A DNA stretch of 64,000 nt, taken from Candidatus Woesearchaeota archaeon. GTDB taxonomy: Archaea; Nanobdellota; Nanobdellia; SCGC-AAA011-G17; PNOQ01. Shown one piece after another: positions 15,505 to 41,321 of the stretch (positions are counted from its first letter, which is position 1; each line of letters begins with the position of its first letter). The translations under genes were made by a program, and so were the position numbers. The stretch is taken from NCBI GenBank assembly GCA_964471565.1, contig CAYYFK010000001.1:36692-100691 (forward strand), given 5' to 3'. The notes under the pieces are model-generated. The model made no database searches. It was not told the origin of the DNA and was given only the letters and a program-made list of their open reading frames with translations.

Positions 15505-15536
15505 TCCTTATAAATCTTATATTTTGACTTAATTCT

Positions 15537-17488: not shown

Positions 17489-17551
17489 AATCAATAACTT
17501 TTTAAATAGTTCAAATTAACTAAATATTAAAGCATTGGAGGTGCAAAACAA

Positions 17552-17713: not shown

Positions 17714-17735
17714 TTTCTTTTTCTTTTTTTTATTT
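17714..17735 (+). terminator. Oligo-T terminator after histone-fold gene
   Basis: tttctttttcttttttttattt directly downstream of the TAA stop. Confidence 0.45.
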
Positions 17736-17791
17736 TAAAATAGTTAAATATATATAGTTAGACTCCTCATTATTAAAAAAGGAGGCAAAAA

Positions 17792-18001: not shown

Positions 18002-18011
18002 CTTCTAGAAA

Positions 18012-18419: not shown

Positions 18420-18451
18420 GTTTAAAAATCCGAATCAGCTCCCCAAAGAAA

Positions 18452-25549: not shown

Positions 25550-25580
25550 ATTAATAGGGAAGTTATCAAAAACTTATAAA

Positions 25581-26685: not shown

Positions 26686-28701
26686 TCATTTATTTAACTT
26701 TCTAATTGGATTTTTCTGCTCCATGGAAAAAATAACAAATGGTCTATTATCCAAATATTTTCTAACTTTTATATTATCTATAATAACACTTCCCTTCAAA
26801 AAACTGTCTGCATTAAAATTAACCATGCCAATTTCTGAAATTAAATCAAAATTCTCCAAGTTCAAAGCAGATTCCTCATTAAAATAAAAATCAAAATTGG
26901 TATCGGATTTCTGAACAATACTAATATCATTCCAAATAAAATGGTCATACATAATTCCAGTAGGTTCCCACCCATCATATTGATGATTATAAACTAAAAA
27001 TTCATTTATGGCTTCTTCTCCACCAAATTTTAGACGTGCACCAAACCTATCTCCATCTAAATTTTTAATTCCCACTTCTCCCCTACTAAAATGGGTAAAA
27101 TAAATAGAAAAATCAACAGCAACCTCGTTAAGGGATTTATTCATAGATTTAGAATCGACTCCCCCTGGCCTATACAATGGCAACCAACTGAGATAATCAG
27201 AAATAAATTCTCCAGAAATAGTTTCATCCTTTTCTGTTTGAATAAATACCTTATCTTCTGAGCTATCCGAACAAAGAAGATTTTGCTTACTTGTGGCATA
27301 CTCTATAACTGCTCCCACCTTGCTTCCATAATTATGGCATTGACTATTGCAACCAAAATAATACATTCCAATTTGATTTGAACCAATGTCATCTTTAACA
27401 ATAACTGGGTCTTCGACCCTAAGAAAATTATATTCTTTGGTTCCAGTCAAAAAAGGGTTTTTTGAATATCTTGTCCAATTAATTAAATCTGTACTATGGG
27501 CAGCACCCAAGAAAAGCTTGAAATTACCTACTTCCTCCCCCCCATTATAAGTCATCAAATATTGTCCAGGAGACAATTCAATTAATTTAGGGTTCGCAAC
27601 GTGTTTCCCATCCCATTCACCCGATTCCCCTAAAAAACCTGCAGACCCATTATGCATAGGGGTCCAATTATATCCATCATCTGAAGTAGCAAAAAAAATC
27701 TGGAAATGATTCAGGCTAGGATCAATTCCTTCCATTCCCATAATATATCCTCCAGTAGAAAGTTTTATCATGTATGGAATAGAAGGTTTTACATTAGAAA
27801 CTCCATCCTGCCCATAAAATTGATATTCTGTCAGTACAGGATTCCCAATATATTTTTCCCAGTTTATACCATCATATGAAGTAGCAATACCAATTCCATA
27901 ATTATCGCTCGAATTTTTACCGACATAATTCATTAAATAATAATTTTCATCCAGCTTAATAACATTTCCAGTGGCAATTGTACTATCATCCCATTCTCCA
28001 ATTTCTCCTTGACCTAAAACAAGAACGCCATCCGACCACTCTGTTCTTTTAAGTCCTTCAGAAACTGTCCTAAATATTCTGGATCCATCCACCCCAGATC
28101 CATACCCCATATAATACCCAATATAGTGTTCATCTTCAACGACCATATATCCTTTTTCATCAATCATGGGGGCAAATCCCCTAATGCTCTTATTATCTAG
28201 GCCATCTCCATGAGGTTCAATAATAGGGTTTTTCTCGTCCTGTTCCCAAATACCAAGAGAAAACTTATCAAATATTTTAGGGCATTTCCTATTTCCAGAA
28301 TAATCATCAAAATATAAAAAAGTACTATATCCGTCACTTAAACTATTGGCATCATCATTTCCATAATAAAGATAAATTTTATTTTTTATAGCCCCTTTTT
28401 TTGAAGAAGGCAATTTCACCCAAAATTTAGAATTCTCCTTTACATTACATTCCTCTGTCCAAAAATCAAGCAAATTACCACTATAATCTGTAAACCGAAT
28501 ATCTGAGCAATCATAATTTATTTTGCCTCCCTTGTATTCCCTAGCAAATCCCTTATTTATCTCAATTTGGTAGTCGCTAACATCCTCAAAAGATGCAATA
28601 TTCACTGGGATCCTATACTCCCAATTACTTAACCAAGCATAGCTTGGACTAGCTAAGGACAAAAAAATCAAAAATACCAGTAAACTTTTCCATAATTTCA
28701 T
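26686..28701 (-). CDS. Secreted DUF2341-domain protein fused to a 5-bladed beta-propeller glycoside-hydrolase-like domain
   Basis: After the signal: WLSNWEYRIPV...DCSDIRFTD...FWVKLP...IYLYYGNDDA (DUF2341 pattern). Then repeated blades (GINWEKYIGNPVL, NWTRYSKNPFL) like GH43/32/130. Confidence 0.5.
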   Translation of the reverse strand: MKLWKSLLVFLIFLSLASPSYAWLSNWEYRIPVNIASFEDVSDYQIEINKGFAREYKGGKINYDCSDIRFTDYSGNLLDFWTEECNVKENSKFWVKLPSSKKGAIKNKIYLYYGNDDANSLSDGYSTFLYFDDYSGNRKCPKIFDKFSLGIWEQDEKNPIIEPHGDGLDNKSIRGFAPMIDEKGYMVVEDEHYIGYYMGYGSGVDGSRIFRTVSEGLKRTEWSDGVLVLGQGEIGEWDDSTIATGNVIKLDENYYLMNYVGKNSSDNYGIGIATSYDGINWEKYIGNPVLTEYQFYGQDGVSNVKPSIPYMIKLSTGGYIMGMEGIDPSLNHFQIFFATSDDGYNWTPMHNGSAGFLGESGEWDGKHVANPKLIELSPGQYLMTYNGGEEVGNFKLFLGAAHSTDLINWTRYSKNPFLTGTKEYNFLRVEDPVIVKDDIGSNQIGMYYFGCNSQCHNYGSKVGAVIEYATSKQNLLCSDSSEDKVFIQTEKDETISGEFISDYLSWLPLYRPGGVDSKSMNKSLNEVAVDFSIYFTHFSRGEVGIKNLDGDRFGARLKFGGEEAINEFLVYNHQYDGWEPTGIMYDHFIWNDISIVQKSDTNFDFYFNEESALNLENFDLISEIGMVNFNADSFLKGSVIIDNIKVRKYLDNRPFVIFSMEQKNPIRKLNK

Positions 28702-28733: not shown

Positions 28734-29933
28734 TTATTTTCTTCTTTTTCTAAAGTAAATAAACCACCCTATATTGATAAGTACCAAAACAACCAAAGCA
28801 ATTACAATCACATTATTCTTATCCATTCCAGGCCCATTGGCTATCACCGCGCCAGTTCCAAAAAAATCAAACTTAATTGAATTTAAACTAATAATTGTTT
28901 TGACATTTTTCTCTATTTTTTCATCATCATAATTTAAAATTATTTTAAAGTTATATTCTCCTTCTTCTACCCCCGCAGAATCCCAGAAAGCGGTTAACTC
29001 CATTTTAGACATTGGAGGAATATCCTCGGAGGCACTCTTGAATCTGCCTATTTCTTCACTTAAATCCATAACAATTAATTCAACAAATGCATCACTTATT
29101 TCTTCAGACCAACGGTTATCAACCAGAATATCAAATCTGGCAATCTCTCCGAGTCTAAAGTTTTTAACGGTTATATCTATAACCTCTACATTCTTTTCTC
29201 CAACATCAAATATCAAATCACCATAACTTACTTCACCATCATAAGTTAATGTAAGCTTAGCATAATATTTCCCTATATTTATTGGGCCATTCCAAGTAGC
29301 CTGAAATTCTTTTCTATTTTGTGCATCTATAGAATCCAGCTTAGTCTCTAATGTAATTATTTTCTCATTAGTCAAACCATATATATCTATTATCCCTTTG
29401 GCATTTACTATTTTTTGATTCCCAAGATTGCTAGCTACAATTCTAAAATCCACTTGATCTATTCTTCCCGTCTCTATTATGTTTAAATCAGAAATAACAT
29501 ATTTCCCAGGATAAGGAACCTTTATTCTTAATTGATGTACAACTGCTACACTTGCCCCCATCATGGTATCCGATGTAGCATAATCTTTTGGAATTTCCCT
29601 TACAACTATTTTGACATCATGGTCTCCAGGGATACCAAATTTATTAGGTAAATTATATGAATATCGAATGGTTTTTGATTCCTCTCCTTCTATAAATTCC
29701 AATTCATAATCTTCAAGTCTCACAACGTTTGCATCATCTCCCTCTAAATAGATAACAACTTTCATTTCTTTATTCTCAGTATTAATTATTTTCAAACTAA
29801 TTTCATCTTCCAACCCTGGTTCAAAATCTACTATCTTCCTTGCTGGAGAAATTCCTAAGGCACTTACTTCATTGATAAAAATAATAAGAACTAAGAAAAA
29901 CATACAAATTCCTATTTTTTTTATTAATTTCAT
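28734..29933 (-). CDS. Surface protein, N-terminal signal and C-terminal TM anchor (paralogue of 38797..39945)
   Basis: Signal ...EVSA|LG. C-terminal VIVIALVVLVLINIGWFIYFRKRRK. Aligns by eye with 38797..39945. Start overlaps giant gene stop by 4 nt. Confidence 0.6.
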   Translation of the reverse strand: MKLIKKIGICMFFLVLIIFINEVSALGISPARKIVDFEPGLEDEISLKIINTENKEMKVVIYLEGDDANVVRLEDYELEFIEGEESKTIRYSYNLPNKFGIPGDHDVKIVVREIPKDYATSDTMMGASVAVVHQLRIKVPYPGKYVISDLNIIETGRIDQVDFRIVASNLGNQKIVNAKGIIDIYGLTNEKIITLETKLDSIDAQNRKEFQATWNGPINIGKYYAKLTLTYDGEVSYGDLIFDVGEKNVEVIDITVKNFRLGEIARFDILVDNRWSEEISDAFVELIVMDLSEEIGRFKSASEDIPPMSKMELTAFWDSAGVEEGEYNFKIILNYDDEKIEKNVKTIISLNSIKFDFFGTGAVIANGPGMDKNNVIVIALVVLVLINIGWFIYFRKRRK

Positions 29934-32900
29934 TCTGTTAAGCTACTCTCAAACAATATATATGAGGTTTTGTTTCCTGCAGGCTCATCTGAAGGAAGTT
30001 CTATTAATATTTCACATTGCGCAGTATCATTAGTATCTTGATATTTCAATGAATCAATAGCAATAACTTGTGCAGTGGCCATGTTTGTCCAAGTAACAAA
30101 AGAGTTCAACCAATCAAATGCTGTTTCTTCACTACTATTATCAATTCTAAACTGGTAGTATGAAGTATCCATTGCAACAGCATCAAATAATGTGGTCGCA
30201 TTAACGCTAATATTAATTAAAGCATTACCATCATTTTTAACTACGATTGGTGTAGGGCTTTCATCAGTGGTATTATCCATATCTCCCGTATATAATCTCC
30301 CAAAATTGGGAGATTCATTAATCAAACTAACCGCCAAGAGAGATTGGACAGTAAAATTATACGGATCACTCCAAACTCCCAAGTCAGAGGAATCATTAGC
30401 CCTAACTCTCCACCAATAACTTAAATCTAAATCTAAATCACTAAGGATAGTATACTCATTAGTCGCAGGAGAAACATTTATTATAATCGGTTCTGAAAAA
30501 GCATCACTATCATCTAACTCCAGCAAGTAGGTTAAACTATCTCCATCAGCATCATTAGGAATACTCCAATTTGATGTCTCAGTCCTATCTACTGTTATGT
30601 TTAAATTTGCCGGGCTATCTAAAACAACTTGATTTGGGGGTTTATTCAAAATAAGTAGGGGATTTGATAAAGTAACCGGACCATCTTCCTCTAGATCATT
30701 TGGAGTTATAGCAACAGACCAATTATGTGTTTTCACTGTACCATTAGATAGAATTCTCATAGGAGAATGATTTGCTAACCCCGCTTGATAATTAGCTAAA
30801 ATTTGTTCACTTGAAAGGGATTCATTATATATTCTTAGTTCATCTACACTTCCATTAAACATTCTACCTGGATAATAGGTATCTCTTCCTACCAGCACAT
30901 CAATACTTGAATCTCTTATATTCCCAGTATATTCTTCGCCCTCTGTCCTTACTCCATCAATATATAAAGAAATATTTTGTCGATCATAAACTCCAACAAC
31001 ATGGTGCCACCCTCCTACAGAAACCCCCCCAGAAGTAGTTGCAGAATAGGCTTGATCGGCAGCTGCAGCGCCCAATATTCTGAATTGTACATCTCCGCTT
31101 GTCCAAGCCCTAAGCAAAAAAGAGTTTCTATGGCCTGCAGTTCCTTCTGCAGCACCAGACCCCTTCATAACAAAAGATTGGTAATCAAGATCTTTAGATT
31201 TATTTACCCATATTTCTACAGTTAGTTCTTTAGTTATATTCAAACTATCGGTGTGACTAAAATTAATATATGGTCTTACACTTTCATTTGGATTAAGAGA
31301 ATACGCTCCCCCCTTTGCTCCACTATTTATCCATACAGGGTAATTTAGTGAAGAGCCACCCTCCCATTGCTGGAGAGTACCATTATTTCCAAAAGTAGAA
31401 TAATCTTTTATTATATTTAAAGCAATAGAAGATTCATTTGAATCAAAAGGAGCATTCAAAACAGCCGAAGAATTTCCATTCAACCTCCAATCTGTTATGT
31501 TATAAATTCCATCTCCATCATTATCTACATAAGTATCAAAATAAACAGTTAAATTTTCATCGGTGTAATTAGTATTGCTATCTGAAGTTGTATTTAATAG
31601 AACATTTGTGTATGCTGATGGAATGGTATTCAAAATAGTTATATTGCTAGAATTCCCCCATCCACCAAAAATAGTGCCATCATGCAATCTTATACTACAA
31701 TTCCATACCTCCCACTTGGTAGTATTTGAACTATTTAGGGTTGCATTAAATAATGTTCCGCTTGCATAAGAATCATTGTAGTCCTGACTCAACCATAGAA
31801 CTGAATTATTATACCACCTTACACTAACATTTAATTTATTAGAATCTGGATCAGTTATTGTAGCTGAACAATTTAAGTTTTGAGTAGTATAATTTGTTGG
31901 CCCGCCTGTAGCATTTAAAAGAGGACTTGGGGTATTGGGAGCAACATTACTAGTCCCTGTAGTAAAATTATAAGTTCCAGTTTCGTTACAATTATTCTCA
32001 TAATCACAAGAGGTTAAATTATAATAATATATTGTACCTTCTGACAACCCAGATAGATTAAAAGAATGGAATAATCCCAAACTTAAGTTTCCATAAGTTG
32101 TTCCTAGGGAAACAGTTCCCCCATAATTAAGGGAGGCATTTGAAGATTCTTGACTAGTCCAATTTATATCTACAGTAGTATAGCCAGTTGTATTAGTTCT
32201 ATTAAGTACCCAAGGAATTTCTTCGGTTGCCGAGAATATTGAATTATAATCTAGGTTATACTTCTTTTGTTGTTCTGTAAAGTTATATCTTATGCCAGTA
32301 TTATTTTCCCAAGATACATTTTGATTGGAGTTATTTAAAATGATTATATTATCGTGGGTTGTAAAATTAGTATTTGAGAAATTTGTTCCATTATCTGAAA
32401 ATCCATAGATATAGCTTTGGTTGTGCACATAAATTCTATTATTATAGACTTGGAGATTAGTTACATTTCTAGGATTTTCATACTTAGCATTCTTTGCTAC
32501 AATGGCCATTGGGCTTTCAGTCCTATTATAATTTGGACAAAAGAAGGTATTATTGTAAATTGTTGTATTGTGTCCTGCCCTTGTTACAAACCCTTCAAAA
32601 TTTGTTTGATTTTCCATAGTATTATTATATGCCCGATATAATGTTTCATGTTTGGATAAAATTCCATATCCCCCCCCTATTACACGATTATATCTTATTG
32701 TAGTATTAAACGTGCTTGCTGTAAATAGTGGGTGTTTACTTGTATGAACCCTTGCCATCCTAATTGTATTATTTTCTATAATTGTATCATTCATATCTCC
32801 TTGAAAATTAGTAACTGTATCTTCCCCAACATAAATTGAATATCCTGCAGGAACAGATATTGCAGAAACATTATGATCTATGGCATTATTCCTTATAGTC

Positions 32901-35900
32901 ATATTTTTGTTTGGTCCGTTGCCTGCTCCTTTTATGTGGATTGGGACCCCATCACTTATGTAAAAAGAGTTATTTTCGAACAAACTATTAGAAACATTAA
33001 TCACCCTAATTGCATATCCATTTGTTGATCCAGTACTCATATTAAGGAATCTTGTATCATTCCCCCATACATTATTTTGTATTTTCAACCCACCATTGTT
33101 ATTTGCAGATGCATGGATTGAAACCCATGCTCCAGAAAAATTTCCATGCCAGAAAGTATTATTTTTTATTAATAGGTTTTGGCTATTATTTATTGTTATT
33201 CCATACCTATTAATATAATCATTTTGATTTCCAAATTGATTATCTTTAATTTGCCAATTAGAACCAATATTATTTACTTCTATACAAGAAGAGCTAGAAT
33301 TTTCAAAATAATTTCCTTGAATAATTGTATTATTTGGAGAAGGTCCATAATATTTTATATGTGTACTAGTTAATTTATATGTAAAATTATTATTCTTTAT
33401 TGTTACATTTGAAGAATCATAACCAGATATTCCAGTCCCGGTATTATTGAAAACATTATCTTCAATGTGCCAATTATGTCTTGGACCGGGGGAGCCGCCA
33501 TAATCATACATTGCTATTCCATAACTTGTTGTATTCACAAAGGTATTATTATAAAGATTTATCACTCCAGTTCCCTGGTCTGCCCAAATTCCATCCTCTG
33601 TATTATTCCCATCTATGACAAAACCCTTAAACGTAACATTATTTGCTCCTGTAATAAATCTTATAACAATAGAAGAAGCACTAGTATTTGCTTGTATTAC
33701 TGCTTGTGATTTATTATAAGAAATAAAAGTTCTATTCTGTACATTCTTATCCATAATTAATAAGTAGTTTGATGCATAAGATTGTTCCCTGTATAATCCA
33801 TCTCCAACATAAATAATCGCATTTGCTCCCGCTGTATTTTCTGCATAATTTATAGTCTTCCATGCATCTTTCCAAGAAGTTCCAGCATTAGTATCGTCCC
33901 CATTCTTAGAAACATAATAAGTATTATTAAATTCTTTAAGAGTAAACTCACTTGAATTACCCCACTCACTTCCAGCAAGGCTATCATTTAATCTCATAGC
34001 ACAATGCCAGCTATCTCCTTCGGCCGTATTTCCAGAATCCAAAGATCTATTGAACAAAGTTCCACTAATATAACTATTAGTAGAATTAGTAAAATTTCCT
34101 TCGACTATGTAATCATTACTTCTATACCACCTTACTGTAACATTCATTTTATCAGAATCTGGATCAGTTATTGTAGCAGAACAGTTTAAATCGACAATGG
34201 GAGAATTAGATCCGTCTGTGGTATTTAGAATTGGGCTTGGGTTATTTGGAGCACTATTAGCAGTTCCAAACTCAAAGAAAATAGATTTATCACTTGTTAA
34301 ATTAACCTCCTTAAATTGTCCATCATAACTAGAATGATTAACTACAATAGTGTAATTGGTTTTATATCCATAATTTCCATGGGTCCTATTAATCAAACGT
34401 TCAGTTAGGTTTTGTCTAACTATATTACCATTAATATCTGTTGTAAGATTAAAAACAAGATTATTGGATTTAAATTTAGGCTTGCTCCCACCAGTATTAT
34501 TATATCCCTGAACAACAGAATCCGAAAGATTGCTATTATCAGTAGATAAATTGGTTTTAACATCCAAAAACCATTTAACCTCAAAAGAGTTCCACCCCCT
34601 ATCCCACTGAATATTTCCTGAAGAAGTATTTAATAACGTGTTATTTTCATCTCGTTCTCCGTTCGCCATTCGAAAATTAAGAGAGGATCCAGACACAATA
34701 GAATTAATAAAAGTATTATAAGTTAAATTGGACATATAAAGTGCAGTAGCAGCAGTAATACTAACATTATTGAAAGTATTGCTCTCAGAATGGTAAGTAA
34801 GCCCCCCATATGTGCCTGCAGCATTACAGCTTGAATTTACTATGTGCCCATAAAGGCTTCTACTCATATACATACAATTTGAGTTAGAATCAAAATTAGC
34901 AGAAGTAAGATTAAAATTATCTGTCTCGTGAACATATAAGGCATAGGAGGAAGAGCCCGCCCCAGTAAAATTATTTACAATTAACCCATCGATAGTATGA
35001 GCATATAAACAATAAGTTCCACAAGAACCAACAGAGTTATTTATTAAAGAAATGTCATTAAGACTTCGAGCATAAACTCCCGTAGTAGTAGAAGAAATGA
35101 TATTATTATTAGTAATATTATTAAAAGGACCGTTTGGATAAAGATAAAAACCATATTTATTCCCCTTAAGAGTATTATTATCAAATATATTATTCCTAGA
35201 AGTACTTTGAACAGAGTAGAATGCTGCTGAAGCAGTTTGGGAAGTATGGTTTTCAATTCTATTATCAACCATAGTGCTATTTTGAAAGTTTAACCCAAAA
35301 TCAATTCCATAGTCTTGTGAAGAATCTGTAGTATATATCGTATTATTAGTTATAGTCCAGTTTCCACCATAGCTTAAAAGCATTCCATGATCTGTATTAT
35401 CATAAATTATATTATTTTTTACAATAATATCATATAAATAGGTAACATATATTCCCCATCTATTACTACTAATATTATTGTTACTAAAATTTAACCCATA
35501 AGATCTAGTTGATGAAGAGGCCCTAATGCCTGCCCCACCAGTAATGTTATAAAAAGTATTGCCATCTACTAACCCCCCATTTGTATTTTTAAAATCGATT
35601 CCTAATAATGAACCAGAACCCTGGTAATTCTTAAAAGTATTATTTACAAAAGAAACATTGCTACTAGTCTGAGATTTAATTCCATAATCATACAACTCAG
35701 TAAAAGTATTATTCAGCCAAAGGTTATTATTTCCCCAATTAAATCCGCCCATAGCAAATTGTTTAATATGACAATTTTTTACTGTTATTCCATGTTTATT
35801 ATAAGCTATCCATATTCCCCAATTAGAATCATCCACATTATCTCCATCTATTATATGTCCATCACAATCCAAAACAGTATTGGTAGCAAGAGATAATCCA

Positions 35901-37474
35901 TTTGCAGCACAGTTAGTTATATCATTCTCCATAATCACAGTACCAGAAATTGCTTGTCCACAACTCAAAACATCATTATAAGCATAGGCAATCTGATTTC
36001 CAAATTCAAATTTTAAATAATGCTTAGCATCAGTCAAAACTTTACTAATTTCAATTCCAGTTTCTAAACAAGAGTAATTTTCAACAAAAACAGAGCCATT
36101 CTCCCATAAATATCCAACGCTCTCATTTCCGCATTTCAAATCTAAAAACTGTAAATCTAAATCATTCTTTTCTTTTATGTCCCAAGTTGTTCCATTAAAT
36201 GGTTTTATACTTAAATTGGCAGTTCCTGTTGTATTAAATCTTACAGTCCAATTTCCGCCCACATATGGATAACTTTGAACATTTAAAATTATAATCTCAA
36301 TTTCAAATTCTTTTTGTTTATCTAAAACTGGAATAATCCATTCAATATAATCAATCAAACCATCCTCATCTAAATCTTTAGTTTCAAATTCTCTCTCTAA
36401 CCGTCCTTCCTTTTCTAAAATATACAAATCAATACTTTCCTTAGGAACATTATCTAAATAAGTGTAGACTAAAACATTTTCAAACTCTTTTCCGCTTACA
36501 AAAACCTTCTTTCTCTCATTTCCAAGTTCAACTTCTTTAGATTCAGGACCAGGAGTAGAATATTTTATCAAAAACTCTTTAGAAGGATTCTTTATAGAAA
36601 GTTTATTTTCATCTAACTCATAAACTACTTCTCCAGTAGTTCTAAAAACATCCTTGAAAAAATTAAAAACAACATTGCCTGTAATCAAATTTTCGGATTC
36701 CTTTTCTTTACCCTTCTCAACAAAATCTTCATCATAGCCTATTTCATAATATTCTATATCAAAAACATCCTCAGGCAATTCAACATCATACAAATCTATT
36801 CTATTTTTTAACTTAACCTTCTTTTCCCAAACAACAGGTTGGTTAATTACAACCCCCAAATTCTTCAATGAAACCTCCTCAATCAAAGTTTCATTTACAA
36901 TTTCTACTACTTCATCCAAACTTAAATTTAACACACTATCATTTTTCACATGACTAGAAATATTTTCATCAAAGGTAGATTCATTATCCTCGGGGGTTGT
37001 TTCATTTAAATCAGTAGATTCATTATGTTCAAAAGTAGAATCATTTATTTCTGTAGAAATATTTTGTTTAACTCCCCCTATACCTTCATCCTCCAAACTA
37101 TTTTCAAAAGAGGGTTCTTCTTCAAAAATCTCTTCCTCAGAATCATCTTCTGGAAGTTTTTCTTCTTTCAATTCTTCTTGTGCAGGTTCCTCTAACTGTC
37201 CCTCCCCAGAAAGGCCAGCCACACCTTCTGAACCACTTTCAATATCAGATATTTCAACAACATCAAATCCTTGATAAGCAAACATTCCTAAAAAACCAAA
37301 TAAAAAAAGTAGTGCAACTAAAAAAAATAAAGTAAAAAAAGAAGTATTTCTCTTGGTAGGATCACTAGTTCCTAAATAAACACTTTTTACTTTGCCATCT
37401 TTTGTTCTAACACTTTTAAAATAGTAAGGACCAAATTTCTTTCCAGCTCTAGATATATACTTCTTATAAACCAA
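29930..37474 (-). CDS. Giant (2514 aa) membrane-anchored surface glycoprotein/adhesin with beta-helix repeats, Ig/FN3-like internal repeats and a LamG-like domain
   Basis: TTG start with GAGGGG RBS. N-terminal basic region plus TM. Hundreds of N-x-S/T sequons. PbH1-like repeats (NNIIYDNTDHG...ITNNTIY). LamG signature DELRIYNESLSSEQILANY. Two ~105-aa repeats. Confidence 0.8.
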   Translation of the reverse strand: MVYKKYISRAGKKFGPYYFKSVRTKDGKVKSVYLGTSDPTKRNTSFFTLFFLVALLFLFGFLGMFAYQGFDVVEISDIESGSEGVAGLSGEGQLEEPAQEELKEEKLPEDDSEEEIFEEEPSFENSLEDEGIGGVKQNISTEINDSTFEHNESTDLNETTPEDNESTFDENISSHVKNDSVLNLSLDEVVEIVNETLIEEVSLKNLGVVINQPVVWEKKVKLKNRIDLYDVELPEDVFDIEYYEIGYDEDFVEKGKEKESENLITGNVVFNFFKDVFRTTGEVVYELDENKLSIKNPSKEFLIKYSTPGPESKEVELGNERKKVFVSGKEFENVLVYTYLDNVPKESIDLYILEKEGRLEREFETKDLDEDGLIDYIEWIIPVLDKQKEFEIEIIILNVQSYPYVGGNWTVRFNTTGTANLSIKPFNGTTWDIKEKNDLDLQFLDLKCGNESVGYLWENGSVFVENYSCLETGIEISKVLTDAKHYLKFEFGNQIAYAYNDVLSCGQAISGTVIMENDITNCAANGLSLATNTVLDCDGHIIDGDNVDDSNWGIWIAYNKHGITVKNCHIKQFAMGGFNWGNNNLWLNNTFTELYDYGIKSQTSSNVSFVNNTFKNYQGSGSLLGIDFKNTNGGLVDGNTFYNITGGAGIRASSSTRSYGLNFSNNNISSNRWGIYVTYLYDIIVKNNIIYDNTDHGMLLSYGGNWTITNNTIYTTDSSQDYGIDFGLNFQNSTMVDNRIENHTSQTASAAFYSVQSTSRNNIFDNNTLKGNKYGFYLYPNGPFNNITNNNIISSTTTGVYARSLNDISLINNSVGSCGTYCLYAHTIDGLIVNNFTGAGSSSYALYVHETDNFNLTSANFDSNSNCMYMSRSLYGHIVNSSCNAAGTYGGLTYHSESNTFNNVSITAATALYMSNLTYNTFINSIVSGSSLNFRMANGERDENNTLLNTSSGNIQWDRGWNSFEVKWFLDVKTNLSTDNSNLSDSVVQGYNNTGGSKPKFKSNNLVFNLTTDINGNIVRQNLTERLINRTHGNYGYKTNYTIVVNHSSYDGQFKEVNLTSDKSIFFEFGTANSAPNNPSPILNTTDGSNSPIVDLNCSATITDPDSDKMNVTVRWYRSNDYIVEGNFTNSTNSYISGTLFNRSLDSGNTAEGDSWHCAMRLNDSLAGSEWGNSSEFTLKEFNNTYYVSKNGDDTNAGTSWKDAWKTINYAENTAGANAIIYVGDGLYREQSYASNYLLIMDKNVQNRTFISYNKSQAVIQANTSASSIVIRFITGANNVTFKGFVIDGNNTEDGIWADQGTGVINLYNNTFVNTTSYGIAMYDYGGSPGPRHNWHIEDNVFNNTGTGISGYDSSNVTIKNNNFTYKLTSTHIKYYGPSPNNTIIQGNYFENSSSSCIEVNNIGSNWQIKDNQFGNQNDYINRYGITINNSQNLLIKNNTFWHGNFSGAWVSIHASANNNGGLKIQNNVWGNDTRFLNMSTGSTNGYAIRVINVSNSLFENNSFYISDGVPIHIKGAGNGPNKNMTIRNNAIDHNVSAISVPAGYSIYVGEDTVTNFQGDMNDTIIENNTIRMARVHTSKHPLFTASTFNTTIRYNRVIGGGYGILSKHETLYRAYNNTMENQTNFEGFVTRAGHNTTIYNNTFFCPNYNRTESPMAIVAKNAKYENPRNVTNLQVYNNRIYVHNQSYIYGFSDNGTNFSNTNFTTHDNIIILNNSNQNVSWENNTGIRYNFTEQQKKYNLDYNSIFSATEEIPWVLNRTNTTGYTTVDINWTSQESSNASLNYGGTVSLGTTYGNLSLGLFHSFNLSGLSEGTIYYYNLTSCDYENNCNETGTYNFTTGTSNVAPNTPSPLLNATGGPTNYTTQNLNCSATITDPDSNKLNVSVRWYNNSVLWLSQDYNDSYASGTLFNATLNSSNTTKWEVWNCSIRLHDGTIFGGWGNSSNITILNTIPSAYTNVLLNTTSDSNTNYTDENLTVYFDTYVDNDGDGIYNITDWRLNGNSSAVLNAPFDSNESSIALNIIKDYSTFGNNGTLQQWEGGSSLNYPVWINSGAKGGAYSLNPNESVRPYINFSHTDSLNITKELTVEIWVNKSKDLDYQSFVMKGSGAAEGTAGHRNSFLLRAWTSGDVQFRILGAAAADQAYSATTSGGVSVGGWHHVVGVYDRQNISLYIDGVRTEGEEYTGNIRDSSIDVLVGRDTYYPGRMFNGSVDELRIYNESLSSEQILANYQAGLANHSPMRILSNGTVKTHNWSVAITPNDLEEDGPVTLSNPLLILNKPPNQVVLDSPANLNITVDRTETSNWSIPNDADGDSLTYLLELDDSDAFSEPIIINVSPATNEYTILSDLDLDLSYWWRVRANDSSDLGVWSDPYNFTVQSLLAVSLINESPNFGRLYTGDMDNTTDESPTPIVVKNDGNALINISVNATTLFDAVAMDTSYYQFRIDNSSEETAFDWLNSFVTWTNMATAQVIAIDSLKYQDTNDTAQCEILIELPSDEPAGNKTSYILFESSLTE
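31631..31948 (-). repeat. Internal domain repeat copy 2 in giant gene (NVAPNTPSPLLN...CSATITDPDSNKLNVSVRWY...)
   Basis: See copy 1. The copies are about 2.3 kb apart within the same ORF. Confidence 0.7.
33944..34258 (-). repeat. Internal domain repeat copy 1 in giant gene (NSAPNNPSPILN...CSATITDPDSDKMNVTVRWY...)
   Basis: About 30-nt near-identical DNA core (agaatctggatcagttattgtagcagaaca) shared with copy 2. Protein copies about 50% identical. Confidence 0.7.
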
Positions 37475-37566
37475 TCTACACCCCTCTTTTTAATAAAAAT
37501 AAACAAGAAAAAGTGATATAAAAACCTTTCTAAATCAGTTTACCTACAAAATAATAAAAAGAAAAA

Positions 37567-37924: not shown

Positions 37925-38800
37925 TTATATTTTTTTCACCATATTATTTATTCTCTTTAGTCCTTTTCTATACGCATCCTGCCCTATATATTTAGAATCG
38001 TATGCTTTTTTTAACAATCTTTTTTGCCTACTTAACTTATTTGCCATAGCAGTCTTTGCTTCTCGTGTTTTTTTGTTTTTTCTGTATGTTCCATACATTC
38101 TCTTTAATCTCTTAGATTGCGTTTTTTCTATTCTTCTTAATTTTGTTTGGTGGAATATAAAAACAAGCAATATAGCAATTCCCAACAAAACTAAAACAAA
38201 CCAGAATCCTACTTCCCATCCGGATGGAAAGAAAATCATTGGTTGTTTAATCTTTTCAGTTCTAGTTCTAGGAACACTCTTATCTCCAATAAGAGTCAAA
38301 TCGAGTGCTTTAAATTTTATTCCAACCCCATTAAAACTTGCCACTAAATCATCAGAACCATCCTCATCCAAATCAAAGAACAATAGTTCATCTGGAAGAA
38401 GACCAAACTTCTGACCAGAAATTTCTAAAATAAGTTTTTCATTGGCCCTATAGAAATAAACACTAAACTCAAACTCAGTTCCTAACTCAAAAATAGTAAG
38501 TACTTTATCCCCCGCTGATAAACCCTCTATCAAATATTCTTCATTTTCTGTAAAATCTAGAGTATGTGTTACAGGAGCAGCTCCACCTCCGGCTCCGCCA
38601 CTTCCCCCTCCAGATCCACCATCATCTCCAGGAGGATCAGAAGGTACAATTACATTCAAACCAACAGTGGCAGTAGCATAAGAATCTTCAGGAGCCACAG
38701 AAGAAGAATACTTAAAATACAATACACTTGGCATAACTATAGAAATAATTATTAATGCGAAAGCTAAAGAGGCAATTACTTCTCTTTTATACACTTTCAT
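37925..38800 (-). CDS. Bitopic membrane protein with Gly-rich linker and basic C-terminal tail
   Basis: N-terminal TM. DDGGSGGGSGGAGGGAAP. Second TM VGFWFVLVLLGIAILLVFIF, then a K/R-rich coiled tail. Confidence 0.5.
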   Translation of the reverse strand: MKVYKREVIASLAFALIIISIVMPSVLYFKYSSSVAPEDSYATATVGLNVIVPSDPPGDDGGSGGGSGGAGGGAAPVTHTLDFTENEEYLIEGLSAGDKVLTIFELGTEFEFSVYFYRANEKLILEISGQKFGLLPDELLFFDLDEDGSDDLVASFNGVGIKFKALDLTLIGDKSVPRTRTEKIKQPMIFFPSGWEVGFWFVLVLLGIAILLVFIFHQTKLRRIEKTQSKRLKRMYGTYRKNKKTREAKTAMANKLSRQKRLLKKAYDSKYIGQDAYRKGLKRINNMVKKI

Positions 38801-39945
38801 CTTTTACCATCTCTTTTTTTCTTTATTCTTATCAAAATAAAATACCCAATTCCAAATACAATAATAAAAATACCTGCCCCTACCCAAAGAATGGAATAAT
38901 CAAATGATTTAACTTCAATATCAAATTCTTCTTCAGTGTGTATATCATCATAAATAAGGCTCAATCTAGCAGGATATTTTCCAGAACTCATTCCTTCAGC
39001 ATCCACATATATTAAAACATCTCTTTCCTCCCAAGAATTTAATCTAAATGTCTCACTTTTGAAAGACTTAAATGGATTATGATATATTTCTAAAAAAGCA
39101 ACTACATTATCTATTTCATTACCCCAATCACTTTTCACTCTCAAATAATATCGGTTTATTGTACCAACCTCTACATCATTATCATAATCTAAAATAGAAA
39201 CATGTACATCTCCCAACTTAAAATTTGCCATAGATTCAGAAGTTTTACCTTGAAAGTTTAAAGTTGACATGCCCCAATAGTCTCCAAATGTATTATCTTC
39301 AGGATTCCATTTCATTTGTATCTCTTTTATTTCTCCCAATTCTAATTGATCATTAAAAGAAAGTTGACCAACACTCTCGTTATAAACATTAAAAATATCT
39401 ATAACTCCTTCAATATTACTAAGAGCGACACTACCTGTATTTTCCATTTTTAAATAAAAAGGAACTAGCTCTCCAACCGAAACACTAGTAGCTTTCAATC
39501 TTGAGCTCAAGTATGGCCCTTCAAAAGGCACTCTAACAATAAAAATACTCGCAGAAGCAGTTAAAACACTAATAAAATCGGTTGATTCTTCAATAGCGAT
39601 TTCACTAGCAACAAAATCAAAACGATAATCTCCAGGTTTTTCAAATTTTTCTGGCATGAGAATATTAAATCTAAAAGCTTTAGTTTCCCCAGGTTGGAAT
39701 AAATACTCCTGAGTTACAAAGTCTGTATAGTTTTCCATTTCACCATAAACAAACATCTTTCCAAGAACTTGCTCTTCATTAGAATTTCTAACATGAACAC
39801 TAACTCCTTTTGCCATTCCAGATTCAAATGTAACTACATCCTTACTTGGAGTTACCTCCAAAGCATACGCACTAGAAAACATACACAACAAAACCAAGAA
39901 AATAATTATTCCCCTCTTTACCATGTTTAAAGAAAAAGAAAGCAA
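38797..39945 (-). CDS. Surface protein, N-terminal signal and C-terminal TM anchor (paralogue of 28734..29933)
   Basis: Signal ...SSAYA|LE. C-terminal ILWVGAGIFIIVFGIGYFILIRIKKKRDGKR. Shared blocks with 28734..29933 (PGDYRFDFVASEI vs PGDHDVKIVVREI; GVIDIFNVYNE vs GIIDIYGLTNE). Confidence 0.6.
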   Translation of the reverse strand: MLSFSLNMVKRGIIIFLVLLCMFSSAYALEVTPSKDVVTFESGMAKGVSVHVRNSNEEQVLGKMFVYGEMENYTDFVTQEYLFQPGETKAFRFNILMPEKFEKPGDYRFDFVASEIAIEESTDFISVLTASASIFIVRVPFEGPYLSSRLKATSVSVGELVPFYLKMENTGSVALSNIEGVIDIFNVYNESVGQLSFNDQLELGEIKEIQMKWNPEDNTFGDYWGMSTLNFQGKTSESMANFKLGDVHVSILDYDNDVEVGTINRYYLRVKSDWGNEIDNVVAFLEIYHNPFKSFKSETFRLNSWEERDVLIYVDAEGMSSGKYPARLSLIYDDIHTEEEFDIEVKSFDYSILWVGAGIFIIVFGIGYFILIRIKKKRDGKR

Positions 39946-39963: not shown

Positions 39964-40530
39964 TTATCCTGTAAAGGTGCAAATAAAAGTTATAGTTCCA
40001 CTTTTCATTCCTGATCCCTCTCCGATTGGAACAGTAGCATTTACACTAACATTCATCTCATCAGTAGCAGCCGCAAAAGCTAGATCAGAAACCAAAATTT
40101 CGGCCGCACCAACAGAATTATTAATAATTTTAAAGCCAGTTACGCAAGTTCCACTTTCAGTTTCATTACATTGCATTGTCCAATTTTGAGTTGGTGCTGT
40201 CTCTGTTATAAATAAATCATCCGTAGAATAACCAGTTATGTTCTGCCCCACATTTCCTGTATTCTCCAAAACTATAAAATCTGGAACCGTAATCTCTTCG
40301 CTCCTATTATAATTTCCCCTAGTTATATTTCCTAAATTAATTGTACTATCTATAGCACTACAGGCAGTAGTGGTATTGACCTCCAATTTAACAGTTCCAG
40401 TAGTAGTAGCAGCTCCAGTTATAGTGTCCATAAAAGAAACACTAAGCCAAGTTCCAGAAACAGAAGCGATAATCGCCATAGCCAATAAAATAGCTAAACT
40501 ATTATTCGATGCCTTCATTTCCCTCAACAC
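39964..40530 (-). CDS. Secreted N-glycosylation-rich small surface protein, tandem paralogue 1
   Basis: Signal MKASNNSLAILLAMAIIASVSG. About 10 N-x-S/T sequons in 188 aa. About 75% aa identity to 40779..41321. Confidence 0.6.
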   Translation of the reverse strand: MLREMKASNNSLAILLAMAIIASVSGTWLSVSFMDTITGAATTTGTVKLEVNTTTACSAIDSTINLGNITRGNYNRSEEITVPDFIVLENTGNVGQNITGYSTDDLFITETAPTQNWTMQCNETESGTCVTGFKIINNSVGAAEILVSDLAFAAATDEMNVSVNATVPIGEGSGMKSGTITFICTFTG

Positions 40531-40801
40531 CCTCTTCTTTTATTTCATCAGCCACGACATTCAAACCTACAAATCCAGTAGCACTAGACTCCAAAACTAT
40601 ATTATTAGTGACTGGCCCACCATAAGAATGAGAATAGTCATAAACTGCATATGCCCCAAAGATGGAAACAATAACTGCCACAACCAACAAAGCAATAATG
40701 ACCTTGTCAGAGACCTCTCTCTTATCACCTTTTTTCATATAAAGAATATGAGAAGTAAAAATATATAAATCTTTTCCTTTAACCAGAGTATGTACAAACA
40801 A
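40502..40801 (-). CDS. Small membrane protein (likely starts at internal MKKGDKRE...)
   Basis: MKKGDKREVSDKVIIALLVVAVIVSIFGAYAV: one TM helix, acidic C-terminus. Lies between the tandem paralogues. Confidence 0.35.
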   Translation of the reverse strand: MFVHTLVKGKDLYIFTSHILYMKKGDKREVSDKVIIALLVVAVIVSIFGAYAVYDYSHSYGGPVTNNIVLESSATGFVGLNVVADEIKEEGVEGNEGIE

Positions 40802-41321
40802 AAGTTATAGTCCCAGTTTTCATTCCAGAGGACTCTCCGATAGGTACAGTAGCATTCACACTAACATTCATCTCATCAGTAGCAGCTATAGTAACCAAAT
40901 CATTAACTAATGTTTCCGCAGTTCCTACAGACGAATTTATTATTTTAAACCCATTCACACAGGTTCCACTCTGGCTTACATTGCACTGCATTGTCCAATT
41001 TTGAGTAGGGGCAGCTGAAGAATCAAACAAATCCGAAGTAGAATAACCAGTTATATTAAGTAAAACATTTCCGTTATTCTCAATAACAACAAAATCAGTA
41101 TCAGGAGTGCCATCAATCTCTTCACTCCTATTATAATTTCCCCTAGTTATATTTCCCAAATTAATTGTACTATCTGTAGCAGTACAAGAAGTAGAAGCAT
41201 TAACTTCCAATTTTATAGTCCCAGTTGTAACTGCTGCCCCTGTTATAGTATCCATAAAAGAAATTGCTACCCACGTGCCAGTTATAGTAGACACAACTGA
41301 AATTACCAACAAAATCACCAA
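40779..41321 (-). CDS. Secreted N-glycosylation-rich small surface protein, tandem paralogue 2 (non-ATG start)
   Basis: Long DNA stretches identical to paralogue 1 (e.g. ctcctattataatttcccctagttatatttcc). No in-frame ATG; upstream in-frame codons still encode ...SNNFLVILL matching the paralogue-1 signal. Confidence 0.55.
   Translation of the reverse strand: MVILLVISVVSTITGTWVAISFMDTITGAAVTTGTIKLEVNASTSCTATDSTINLGNITRGNYNRSEEIDGTPDTDFVVIENNGNVLLNITGYSTSDLFDSSAAPTQNWTMQCNVSQSGTCVNGFKIINSSVGTAETLVNDLVTIAATDEMNVSVNATVPIGESSGMKTGTITFVCTYSG

Follow-up and report, generated by a model that had tools for sequence, protein, structure and literature searches.

The long open reading frame on the minus strand of the window (the whole 64,000-nt stretch of DNA analyzed here) is a genuine TTG-initiated gene for a giant cell-surface protein of a DPANN (Woesearchaeota-like) archaeon, and genes bearing its C-terminal domain (CTD) are followed by a p399-type gene, whose product combines a signal peptide with Ig-like domains and a transmembrane (TM) helix at the C terminus. 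Overall, the data are probably best explained by an anchored, glycosylated surface protein that carries a swappable payload and operates with a CTD and partner system (Table 1).

The protein is ordinary in kind, yet it is a member of a large, unannotated family of >1,600 clusters. The conserved parts of this family are an N-terminal leader motif with a TM helix, a stalk of three beta-sandwich domains and a ~140-aa CTD; the middle region is variable and constitutes a swappable payload between conserved ends. The preliminary description mentioned neither the conserved leader motif, stalk and CTD nor the CTD homology to small secreted proteins encoded upstream and the coupled partner gene. All named homologs are from DPANN archaea (Woesearchaeota, Pacearchaeota, Nanoarchaeota and Undinarchaeota). 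The locus is syntenic in 8 independent loci, with a conserved, co-oriented array that runs from the small CTD-only secreted proteins through p382, p291 and a coiled-coil protein to the giant gene and p399. The gene context is archaeal (aRF1; tRNA-splicing endonuclease, GINS and L44e), and in all relatives the locus lies beside housekeeping genes. Genomes encode several giant paralogs with differing payloads, arranged in tandem in L006.

Table 1. Positions in the window of the giant gene, its modules and the neighboring genes
Feature	Position	Strand	Residues	Remark
Giant ORF	29930..37474	minus	2,514 aa	TTG start
TTG start codon	37472..37474	minus		First possible start past in-frame TAA at 37492-37490
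Shine-Dalgarno-like GAGGGG	37481..37486	minus		6 nt 5′ of TTG
Putative BRE/TATA-like promoter element GAAAGG TTTTTATAT	37516..37530	minus		~45 nt 5′ of start codon; direct sequence reading
Cytoplasmic basic leader motif (MVYKKYIxRxGKKFGPYYFKSVRxxDGKVKSVYLG)	37346..37474	minus	1-43	12 K/R vs 2 D/E
Single TM helix / signal anchor	37271..37345	minus	44-68	Kyte-Doolittle
Acidic sequon-bearing spacer	36893..37270	minus	69-194	40 D/E vs 4 K/R in 126 aa
Conserved membrane-proximal stalk, three beta-sandwich domains	35966..36892	minus	195-503	Predicted model
Right-handed parallel beta-helix block 1	34580..35965	minus	511-836 (Pfam-supported)	Extension by sequence to about aa 965
Repeat module copy 1	33938..34276	minus	1067-1179	50% identity with copy 2
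Right-handed parallel beta-helix block 2	32240..33937	minus	1219-1556 (Pfam-supported)	Extension by sequence to about aa 1745
FN3-like module	31958..32182	minus	1765-1839	Sub-threshold
Repeat module copy 2	31634..31966	minus	1837-1947	50% identity with copy 1
LamG / concanavalin-A-like lectin domain	30800..31270	minus	2069-2225	Laminin_G_3
FN3-like module	30356..30619	minus	2286-2373	Sub-threshold
Conserved CTD, 8-strand beta-sandwich	29933..30352	minus	2375-2514	Predicted model
Partner gene p399: signal peptide, CARDB-like Ig domains, C-terminal TM, basic tail	28734..29933	minus	~400 aa	
p382, p399 paralog	38797..39945	minus		26% identity, E 4e-36; directly after small CTD-only genes
Small secreted CTD-only protein	39964..40518	minus	184 aa	BLASTP vs giant CTD E 2e-5
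Second small secreted CTD-only protein	40779..41321	minus	180 aa	BLASTP vs giant CTD E 2e-8

Start site, membrane topology and sequons

The frame was listed mechanically and translated, and the chance probability of an open frame this long at 32% GC is about 1e-87. An ortholog with 47% identity aligns over the full length of the protein, and thus there is no sign of a frameshift. The TTG start with its GAGGGG ribosome-binding site, proposed in the preliminary description, is backed by conservation among orthologs. Specifically, the TTG, the AAAAGAGGGG motif and the GAAAGGTTTTTATA BRE/TATA-like box are kept in 7 of 8 orthologous loci, as is AAAAGAGG(G/T)G 5′ of the start, and the GAAAGGTTTTTATA box stands at an equal distance from the start in loci L002, L004, L005, L006 and L009. 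The encoded MVYKKYI... motif starts exactly at the conserved TTG, and the next methionine, residue 64, falls within the TM helix. The BRE/TATA-like element is a putative promoter.

The basic N terminus, single TM segment and acidic spacer described earlier were all recovered (Table 1), and residues 44-68 contain the sole 19-aa window above 1.6 in Kyte-Doolittle hydropathy in the entire protein. By the positive-inside rule, this charge distribution supports a predicted N-in/C-out orientation with N-terminal anchoring. A GPY[YF]-type core signature is present within the first 45 aa in 36 of 92 family matches, and a further 4 of the 92 carry a G[KR][DE]YYY variant. The leader of the giant protein gave no match in a Pfam search, and DUF6788 was matched only weakly by the leader in 7 of 23 relatives. 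In the stalk, a double [LI]TG loop (aa 248-285, 36620-36733) is conserved and is the sole low-confidence stretch of the model.

The extreme N-x-S/T sequon density noted previously proved real as an enrichment, with 143 sequons in place of the "hundreds" first reported. Whole-protein shuffling predicts 57 ± 6.3, and the count is 2.29-fold the expectation of a 30-aa local shuffle (z 11.5). The enrichment is motif-specific: the reversed motif occurs at 0.78-fold and other spacings at 0.8- to 1.0-fold expectation. Nine sequons fall within aa 101-200, and homologs of the giant protein are enriched 1.5- to 2.5-fold. The ectodomain thus appears to be under selection for N-x-S/T and is most likely heavily N-glycosylated through the archaeal AglB pathway; no AglB gene was found within the 64-kb window.

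Payload modules and mosaic evolution

Pfam analysis bore out the beta-helix and LamG modules of the preliminary description. Across the whole protein, Beta_helix matched at 1.4e-28 over six stretches and NosD at 3e-13, and TIGR03804 found three repeats. Block 1 matched Beta_helix (8.8e-19 and 4.9e-9), NosD, a DUF1565-like cap (5.4e-5) and, below threshold, Pect-lyase_RHGA_epim (1e-3); block 2 matched Beta_helix (6.4e-11 and 1.7e-10) and NosD (8.8e-8). PDB sequence searches returned no relative of either block. The Beta_helix and NosD matches are generic and are evidence of neither binding nor catalysis. Laminin_G_3 matched at E 6.8e-26 (91.7 bits vs a cutoff of 27.6). Of the FN3-like modules, the first matched Pur_ac_phosph_N under the gathering score (E 1.4e-5 / 3.4e-4) and the second matched fn3 at E 4.6e-4 (20.8 bits vs a cutoff of 25).

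Two ~105-aa Ig-like repeats with a 30-nt identical DNA core had also been described. The repeats are present, aligning over ~110 aa with 50% amino acid identity (E 2e-31 to 5e-33), and they share a 67-nt DNA core of 90% identity (31810-31876 vs 34123-34189); the longest exact run within it is 24 nt, not 30. The Ig-like label found no supporting Pfam match (ig E=0.065), and to call the modules Ig-like would be a guess from their sequence. Because the cores are spaced by 2313 nt, the copies are in frame.

Several observations place these repeats at the joints of a mosaic. Copy 1 is a junction of mosaic identity against both orthologs P0002 and P0003, and copy 2 is a second such junction against P0003. 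Inside repeat 1, P0002, a close relative, carries an extra LamG-containing block of ~340 aa that is similar to aa 1948-2288 of the giant protein. In L006, the paralogous giant gene contains at least 4 sites that match repeat 2 DNA. Compared with genome L006, for which the background is 78-86%, aa 1076-2514 are 80% identical and aa 1-1075 only 45%, and the differences among close relatives amount to 1,000 aa and entire modules. The junctions, the insertion and the dispersed repeat DNA together indicate that the modules act as recombination joints over evolutionary time; on these sequence comparisons, the payload evolves via module exchange with joints at the repeated modules.

It is highly improbable that intragenic recombination driven by the two repeats is still under way in the living population as antigenic or phase variation, for example by in-frame deletion or duplication of the intervening 771 codons. 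The in-frame spacing, the common core, the presence of modules between or after such repeats in some relatives and their absence from others, and the scattering of repeat DNA among paralogous genes would suit such a process. However, 24 identical nt and 50% amino acid identity are marginal for homologous recombination, and the sole other assembly found with the giant protein, possibly from the same sample, has an identical sequence. The suggestion that the repeats are a recombination substrate therefore holds over evolutionary time, with no sign of ongoing variation.

The C-terminal domain and its partner gene

The CTD always occupies the extreme C terminus within the family. Its predicted fold resembles PapD-like, TasA-like and pilin beta-sandwiches. 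It is homologous to two small secreted proteins encoded upstream (hhalign 99%), which are 72% identical to each other, and a CTD profile search recovered a genuine small secreted family member. The 184-aa protein has an invariant N-terminal segment in the family alignment, D-x-ITGAATTTG-x-x-L, and contains 10 sequons vs 3.4 expected.

p399 is the translationally coupled partner gene of the giant gene, with 4 nt of overlap between its start and the giant stop codon. Every syntenic locus examined has a p399 homolog downstream and on the same strand, and in 30 of 34 species-representative genomes the gene after the CTD encodes an Ig-like protein of ~400 aa that has a C-terminal TM. In L006, a joint duplication took in the CTD, the FN3-like module that precedes it and the 5′ portion of the partner gene. 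The p399 protein contains no sequons and gives only weak CARDB, BsuPI and WxLIP_HBD matches.

This gene layout parallels, by analogy, the WxL/WxLIP (Csc) surface gene clusters of Gram-positive Firmicutes (Lactobacillales and Bacillales; PMC10599100; PMC1534035). Both comprise a large protein with variable N-terminal binding domains and a C-terminal docking domain of ~140-190 aa, one or more small secreted proteins made of the docking domain alone and a conserved Ig-like-domain protein with a TM helix at its C terminus; the weak WxLIP_HBD matches come from a few p399-family members. In WxLIP, the Ig-like, C-terminally anchored protein is predicted to donate a strand to the docking-domain beta-sandwich (PMC10599100). 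In contrast, no sequence relationship between the CTD and WxL was detected (no Pfam WxL match and no dual W-x-L motif), the archaeal host lacks peptidoglycan, the ligand of WxL, the giant protein is 2-10 times larger than the WxL large protein and is additionally anchored by an N-terminal TM of its own, and p399 has ~3 Ig-like domains vs DUF916 plus DUF3324 in WxLIP. From the gene linkage and this analogy we infer that the partner may serve as a membrane dock for the CTD, perhaps through beta-strand complementation. The CTD monomer, however, is modeled with confidence as a sandwich that seems complete (pLDDT 91), and thus the CTD need not require a donated strand. Were such a tether to operate alongside the N-terminal TM, both ends of the protein would be fixed, an unusual arrangement.

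Proposed function and alternative readings

In the reading that we favor, the basic 43-aa cytoplasmic leader and one TM helix would hold the N terminus in the membrane, N-in and C-out. The acidic spacer and three beta-sandwich domains would form a stalk displaying an exchangeable payload of two CASH/NosD-type parallel beta-helices, two ~110-aa modules, the LamG lectin-like domain and FN3-like modules, and the ~140-aa beta-sandwich CTD would terminate the protein. The payload may bind, and possibly cleave, glycans on a host cell or polymers, and such binding would mediate the attachment on which small-genome DPANN archaea depend. We thus regard the protein as a putative adhesin or glycan-binding protein.

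A structural role is an unlikely alternative, in which the giant protein is the main envelope (S-layer-type) glycoprotein and p399 its membrane stalk. As in the SlaA/SlaB pair of Sulfolobales, the gene for a large, Ig-rich outer protein, sequon-rich here and probably heavily N-glycosylated, adjoins one for a smaller stalk protein that carries a C-terminal TM helix, the latter here with signal peptide and Ig-like domains, and the conserved position beside housekeeping genes fits such a role. Archaeal S-layer proteins can contain NosD/CASH-type beta-helices. Among DPANN archaea, the candidate S-layer proteins are glycosylated and rich in Ig domains (10.1101/2023.10.27.564410). However, an N-terminal TM anchor of its own and enzyme- or lectin-type domains set the giant protein apart, and no sequence similarity to SlaA/SlaB or match to any solved S-layer protein was found in sequence searches. 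Strong mosaicism between strains, with differences of 1,000 aa and whole modules and half of the gene replaced relative to the genomic background, would be odd for a lattice-forming protein, and several paralogous giant-partner pairs with different payloads are possible per genome.

Somewhat less likely still is that the giant protein is the base or tip of a donor-strand-assembled fiber of the TasA or bundling-pilus type, in which the small CTD-only proteins would polymerize onto the giant CTD through their invariant ITGAATTTG strand. Donor-strand-complemented archaeal filaments of the TasA superfamily include AbpA bundling pili, CanX cannulae and the thread subunit (PMC9245690; PMC12518558). 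The CTD differs in giving no sequence-profile match to Peptidase_M73 or the solved subunits, in having no adjacent signal peptidase and in its fusion to the ends of giant proteins and linkage to a partner anchored in the membrane. We consider it improbable that the protein is primarily a cell-bound polysaccharide-degrading enzyme, with a beta-helix lyase, hydrolase or epimerase and LamG as carbohydrate-binding module, working with the neighboring secreted DUF2341 protein. The pectate-lyase-fold domains (including the sub-threshold match), the LamG domain, the GH43-related and beta-mannobiose-phosphorylase-like matches of the downstream DUF2341 protein and a CBM96 protein encoded elsewhere in the window point in this direction, and the Nanobdella authors speculated similarly (10.1101/2023.10.27.564410). 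Against it, Pfam gave no at-threshold match to any catalytic CAZy-type family, the beta-helix blocks lack a PDB sequence relative and the DUF2341 gene is missing at syntenic loci L005 and L009.

In kind, the giant protein resembles known DPANN surface proteins. LamG proteins (PMC10266531) and LamG/beta-helix N-glycosylated proteins occur in Woesearchaeota, Pacearchaeota, nanohaloarchaea and Nanobdella aerobiophila (PMC10266531; 10.1101/2023.10.27.564410). Like the giant protein, these are very long, many-sequon proteins of small-genome, host-dependent archaea, combining parallel beta-helix, ConA/LamG lectin fold and Ig/FN3 modules, with a presumed role in host or glycan attachment. Nanobdella encodes aglB and beta-helix "pectin-lyase-like" proteins with 36-52 N-glycosylation sites (10.1101/2023.10.27.564410), of 908-1320 aa vs 2,514 aa here. 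Those two reports cover domain content only, leaving the leader motif, stalk, CTD, small free-standing paralogs and partner gene undescribed. The SPEARE-type proteins of Nanohaloarchaeota (PMC10266531) are likewise giant, membrane-anchored, extracellular, Ig-rich DPANN proteins implicated in host interaction. The giant protein described here lacks a VirB4/TraG-like ATPase, a protease and a coiled-coil tip domain, no secretion ATPase is encoded next to it, and SPEARE proteins are a different family, 3-4 times longer.

The giant gene, its start and its source organism

The open reading frame of the giant surface protein (2,514 residues) is real. At 32% GC, the chance probability of so long an open frame is near 1e-87, and an orthologue with 47% identity aligns across 100% of its length; there is therefore no hint of frameshifts. 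The TTG start and GAGGGG ribosome-binding site read from the DNA in the preliminary description also held up. The TTG at 37474 is the earliest start after an in-frame TAA (37492-37490), GAGGGG lies 6 nt 5′ of it, and the next Met of the protein, residue 64, falls within the hydrophobic helix. TTG is kept in seven of eight orthologous loci, in most of which AAAAGAGG(G/T)G precedes the start and a BRE/TATA-like box, GAAAGGTTTTTATA, lies ∼45 nt 5′ of it. The start call is well supported because the TTG, the SD-like motif and the BRE/TATA-like box are kept across orthologous loci. The giant gene probably has its own promoter, located after the T-rich tract that trails the upstream coiled-coil gene. 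Comparison of the site at 37472-37530 (-) with loci of relatives in other genomes (L002, L004, L005, L006, L009 and L010) indicated that a weak TTG start is seemingly maintained on a very large gene.

The gene belongs to a DPANN archaeon of low GC. Among the products of the window are aRF1 and a class I aminoacyl-tRNA synthetase, and the contig also has gene calls for tRNA-splicing endonuclease, GINS and ribosomal protein L44e. A protein identical to the giant occurs in ENA metagenome assembly ERZ23498945. Its named homologues are all from Woesearchaeota, Pacearchaeota, Nanoarchaeota or "archaeon" MAGs save two: these match weakly, in part and through LamG only, lie outside the family, and include one named Anaerolineae.

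Domain architecture and glycosylation sequons

The protein begins, as first described, with a basic N-terminus (residues 1 to 43; 12 K/R and 2 D/E), its sole TM-like segment (residues 44 to 68) and an acidic spacer (residues 69 to 194; 40 D/E and 4 K/R). With this signal-anchor N-terminus, it would adopt an N-in/C-out orientation and be displayed on the stalk (residues 195 to 503). The proposed β-helix stack was recovered by Pfam Beta_helix (PF13229; 100 bits vs. a cutoff of 25.9, 1.4e-28) in six stretches that form two blocks, residues 511 to 836 and 1219 to 1556; NosD (PF05048) scored 50.2 bits against a cutoff of 23.6 (3e-13) and TIGR03804 21 bits against 19.45. Tandem PbH1-type coils above the gathering score thus identify a right-handed parallel β-helix of the CASH type. 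Likewise, the LamG domain was located by Laminin_G_3 (PF13385) at residues 2069 to 2225 (91.7 bits vs. a cutoff of 27.6, 6.8e-26), the match covering profile positions 6 to 150 of 151. Searches of PDB sequences with β-helix 1, β-helix 2 and the FN3-LamG region returned nothing significant. The two repeat modules are where they had been placed and are 50% identical (E 5e-33); the reported 30-nt identical DNA core, however, shrank to a longest exact run of 24 nt, inside a 67-nt stretch at 90% identity, and the name "Ig-like" is without profile support.

Across 92 family hits, conservation is confined to the protein ends, the middle being variable. The leader follows the consensus MVYKKYIxRxGKKFGPYYFKSVRxxDGKVKSVYLG and precedes the TM; within the first 45 residues, 36 of the 92 hits have its core GPY[YF]-type signature and four more a G[KR][DE]YYY variant. 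Queried with the 42-aa leader motif, a word-indexed search for homologues yielded two fragments only. DUF6788 (PF20586), matched weakly by 7 of 23 relatives (best E 0.0023), was rejected as a name for the leader of the giant, which gave no HMM match at E≤10. In the stalk, the loop formed by residues 248 to 285 (36620-36733, -) contains two [LI]TG motifs, 77-88% conserved, and is the only low-confidence stretch of the stalk model (pLDDT 29-41); it could be a donated β-strand or a processing site. Similar TG-hydrophobic strands are found after the TM helix in many relatives, in two proteins encoded by neighboring genes and named here by their length, p78 (SSATGFVGLNVV) and p291 (ATATVGLNVIV), and in the small secreted proteins described below (ITGAATTTG).

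The giant contains 143 sequons rather than the "hundreds" initially estimated, and they are strongly enriched. Specifically, the ectodomain has 142 N-x(not P)-S/T motifs compared to 62 ± 6.9 expected from shuffling residues inside 30-aa windows (z 11.5, 2.29-fold), N-x-T being more enriched (2.66-fold) than N-x-S (1.96-fold). Control motifs in the ectodomain were not enriched (reversed [ST]-x-N, 0.78-fold; N-[ST], 1.04-fold; N-x-x-[ST], 0.82-fold; D-x-[ST], 0.87-fold). Homologues of the giant showed 1.5- to 2.5-fold enrichment, the small secreted proteins have 9-10 sequons each vs. ∼3.5 expected, and cytoplasmic proteins have sequon counts at expectation. At the sequence level, this excess is a signature of selection for N-glycosylation sites, and the giant would be heavily N-glycosylated. 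Of the ORFs scanned in the window (64 kb), none was STT3/AglB. The two Ig-like partner proteins, p399 and p382, have zero and two sequons, respectively, and on these counts may be shielded, membrane-proximal or otherwise unglycosylated.

A terminal domain common to small secreted proteins and its linked partner

The last ∼140 residues of the giant (residues 2375 to 2514, the CTD) are terminal in 32 of the 33 family members that carry this domain. A CTD profile matched 1,638 50%-identity clusters in a library of 1.84 billion proteins, 588 of them below 1e-30; its top matches run to the C-terminus, or stop no more than a few residues short of it, on proteins of up to 5,817 aa, and it also matches small free-standing subunits. 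Two such subunits, the CTD-only 180-aa and 184-aa proteins, are encoded close to the giant gene and are homologous to its CTD (BLASTP E 2e-8 and 2e-5, respectively; hhalign 99.1%, E 8e-19, 136 columns); both carry an extra invariant N-terminal segment, D-x-ITGAATTTG-x-x-L. The CTD had no Pfam (even at E≤10), NCBIfam or PDB sequence match, the CTD and small-protein alignment profiles (A1 and A2) hit nothing relevant among PDB sequences, and neither Pfam nor NCBIfam had a significant match to the small proteins, p78, p291 or p289. AF2 structure predictions, made as single chains of the CTD and stalk, gave modest fold matches; a jelly-roll/Ig β-sandwich resembling that of TasA or AbpA is possible for the CTD. 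Because the curated-library and solved-structure searches yielded nothing usable, the names of the cluster parts are descriptive only.

The genes from 42249 down to ∼24700 are all co-oriented with short gaps, and their order recurs at the loci of orthologues 33-80% identical to the giant. The p399 gene overlaps the giant's stop by 4 nt. Its product is paralogous to p382 (E 4e-36), and both consist of a signal peptide ending ...ALG(V/I)(T/S)P(A/G)R, ∼330 aa of CARDB-like Ig domains and then a C-terminal TM with a poly-basic tail; against PDB sequences, a p399 profile yielded no more than marginal CARDB-like matches. A scan of species-representative genomes with the CTD, using a 7-sequence subset of the 26-sequence alignment and thus biased toward closer relatives, returned 34 loci in Woesearchaeota, Pacearchaeota, Nanoarchaeia, Undinarchaeota and a few bins labelled Methanosarcinales. 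In 30 of these 34 genomes a p399 homologue lies just 3′ of the CTD-ending gene on the same strand, either abutting it (-3 to +29 nt) or separated by a gap of mostly 450-700 nt. At L010 and L011, two loci from other DPANN lineages, this gap holds an ORF of ∼160 aa, which is absent from the window. The small proteins, too, have a p399-type gene (p382) after them, so that a CTD-bearing protein followed by a membrane-anchored Ig partner makes up the recurring unit.

This cassette can also duplicate: in the closest relative, the orthologue is preceded in tandem by a second, upstream giant gene (L006/L007/L008, 1-9930; 3,588 aa, with LamG) that has a 399-aa partner of its own. The DNA block duplicated there takes in the FN3-like module, the CTD and the partner gene's 5′ part. 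The small p78 ORF is kept at the same position, with 55-78 aa, in L002, L004, L005, L009, L010 and L011. The methyltransferase-like and Cas4-like genes come after the surface cluster and are syntenic in all relatives examined.

Features of the surface cluster, in gene order, followed by an ORF seen in relatives and by other features of the window
Feature	Coordinates	Strand	Description
p289		-	Neighbor-gene product
Small 180-aa protein	40779-41321	-	CTD-only, secreted
p78	40502-40738	-	78-aa ORF, one TM helix, acidic tail; overlaps start of small 184-aa gene
Small 184-aa protein	39964-40518	-	CTD-only, secreted
p382	38797-39945	-	p399-type gene 3′ of small CTD-only proteins
p291	37925-38800	-	N-terminal TM, Gly-rich stretch, second TM, long basic tail; between p382 and giant in all close relatives
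105-aa coiled-coil protein	37567-37884	-	Between p382 and giant in all close relatives
Giant	29930-37474	-	2,514-aa surface protein
Repeat 1	33938-34276	-	Residues 1067-1179 of giant
Repeat 2	31634-31966	-	Residues 1837-1947 of giant
p399	28734-29933	-	Giant's partner
DUF2341 protein	26686-28701	-	Secreted, 671 aa, GH43-related/β-propeller-like region
N6/N4 DNA methyltransferase-like (361 aa), then Cas4/PD-(D/E)XK nuclease-like (270 aa)	24737-26666	-	
∼160-aa gap ORF	L010 18401-18880; L011 18398-18883		N-terminal TM and FN3-like "YYWKV" domain
560-aa protein	12087-13769	+	CBM96-containing putative surface protein
465-aa protein	18452-19849	+	Putative surface protein with lamin-tail domains (LTD)
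tRNA-Phe(GAA)	11966-12042		At edge of plus-strand block

Mosaic divergence and the proposed display of the giant protein

Identity to relatives is uneven along the cluster. Compared to L006, the locus of the closest genome, the flanking proteins are 78-86% identical and residues 1076 to 2514 of the giant 80%, whereas residues 1 to 1075 are only 45% and the DUF2341 protein 48% identical. Against L004, where the background is 62-78% (except for the small p78 protein and p411), the giant, taken in thirds, is 49%, 70% and 51% identical. The DUF2341 protein shares 83% identity with its L002 counterpart, and the other L002 genes are 29-73% identical, a pattern that resembles an exchange of cassettes or alleles among lineages. 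Between the giant and the homologous giant protein P0002, identity rises from ∼40% to ∼80% between residues ∼940 and ∼1040, and P0002 has an extra ∼340-aa LamG-containing block, resembling residues 1948 to 2288 of the giant, inserted inside repeat 1. A second junction, with the homologue P0003, coincides with the end of repeat 2, and repeat 2 DNA matches at least four sites in L006's paralogous giant gene at 72-80% identity. Thus, the repeat modules behave as module-exchange joints over evolutionary time, and to that extent the earlier suggestion that the pair is a recombination substrate stands. Such exchange of modules, documented here mostly for the half of the giant that is exposed, would be the outcome expected of host-range arms races.

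Much of archaeal diversity falls within DPANN, whose members are thought to live attached to hosts; to our knowledge, the molecules used for this attachment are essentially unknown. On its own, the giant is an ordinary example of the β-helix/LamG surface proteins already noted in DPANN genomes, where giant glycoproteins of this kind are a recognised feature (PMC10266531; 10.1101/2023.10.27.564410). No curated family that was searched matches its leader motif, its stalk module, the CTD common to small secreted proteins or its near-obligatory partner. None of the cluster's protein families carries an annotation. The useful result is a frame: a conserved leader, TM and stalk, a conserved terminal domain common to small secreted proteins and a membrane-anchored partner to which it is almost always linked. 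From this frame comes a concrete model, open to test, of the way these proteins would be mounted on the cell, and the CTD profile provides a handle for cataloguing the entire repertoire of displayed payloads in metagenomes.

By analogy, the closest described logic is that of the WxL clusters of Lactobacillales and Bacillales, which encode a large protein that has domains for host binding at its N-terminus and a WxL domain at its C-terminus, a small WxL-only protein and WxLIP, a protein that has two Ig-like domains plus a C-terminal TM helix and a loop that, by prediction, completes the WxL sandwich (PMC10599100; PMC1534035). The giant's cluster likewise encodes small secreted proteins consisting of the putative docking domain only, a likeness of architecture and not homology to WxL, and the partner, tightly linked in 30/34 genomes, may correspond to WxLIP, with which it has an architecture of Ig-like domains plus a C-terminal TM helix in common. 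Unlike WxL domains, the CTD has no WxL HMM match and no dual Trp-x-Leu motif, its consensus having NWL and WTN and no W-x-L pair. Among p399-family members, PF11797 (DUF3324, WxLIP_HBD) matched weakly in 3/25 (best 8.5e-5), CARDB/BsuPI matches were as weak, and DUF916 (PF06030) matched in 0/25. Archaea lack peptidoglycan. With no WxL HMM match, no dual W-x-L and a host without peptidoglycan, membership in the WxL family fails; the claim is therefore that the cluster "works like" WxL, not that it "is" WxL. Among the top-ranked papers of a literature search, none joined WxL with DPANN terms. A SPEARE-type identity, after the giant proteins of Nanohaloarchaeota, was also rejected: neither the giant nor its neighbors have a VirB4/TraG-like ATPase or protease Pfam domain, and there is no adjacent secretion ATPase.

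By analogy, the CTDs of both the giant and the small proteins would probably be docked by p399 and p382. More tentatively, the giant gene may be part of an undescribed surface-display system in several DPANN lineages, an archaeal functional counterpart of the Firmicute WxL/WxLIP clusters; we judge this wider reading somewhat less likely than not. In such a system, the ∼140-aa terminal β-sandwich would be caught via β-strand complementation by the co-encoded Ig partner, itself anchored in the membrane at its C-terminus. Candidate donated strands would be the conserved [LI]TG motifs, which many relatives have after their TM helices and which also lie in the low-confidence stalk loop and N-terminally in the small subunits. 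The almost invariable pairing could instead be that of an SlaA/SlaB-like envelope pair, which we judge unlikely. The N-termini of the small proteins, read by eye, also suggested a TasA-type donor-strand fibre built on the CTD. Such a fibre is quite improbable: the proteins showed no Pfam match to the TasA superfamily and no profile relation to Peptidase_M73 or to solved TasA, AbpA, CanX and thread subunits, and the scan of cluster ORFs returned no peptidase family, such as an adjacent SipW-type signal peptidase I. Because profiles do not confirm it and the signal peptidase gene is absent, the TasA/SipW idea is kept only as a rival.

The CASH-type β-helices and LamG lectin fold would bind, or perhaps cut, glycans on a host or polymer. 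That the giant is primarily a cell-bound polysaccharidase is very doubtful, as the only match bearing on a catalytic, CAZy-type polysaccharide lyase/hydrolase signature was a sub-threshold Pect-lyase_RHGA_epim (19.4 bits vs. 27). Programmed variation through the giant's repeats would build on the same modules that mark the exchange joints; a 24-nt identity within the gene is marginal for recombination, and we regard such variation as highly improbable. In the surface-display reading, with the giant mounted through its CTD by the Ig partner, these tiny symbionts could mount giant glycan-binding payloads and swap them by recombination at the repeat-module joints.

Outside the cluster, at ∼10000-20000, a plus-strand gene block with positive GC and AT skew lies inside the otherwise minus-strand, negative-skew window.
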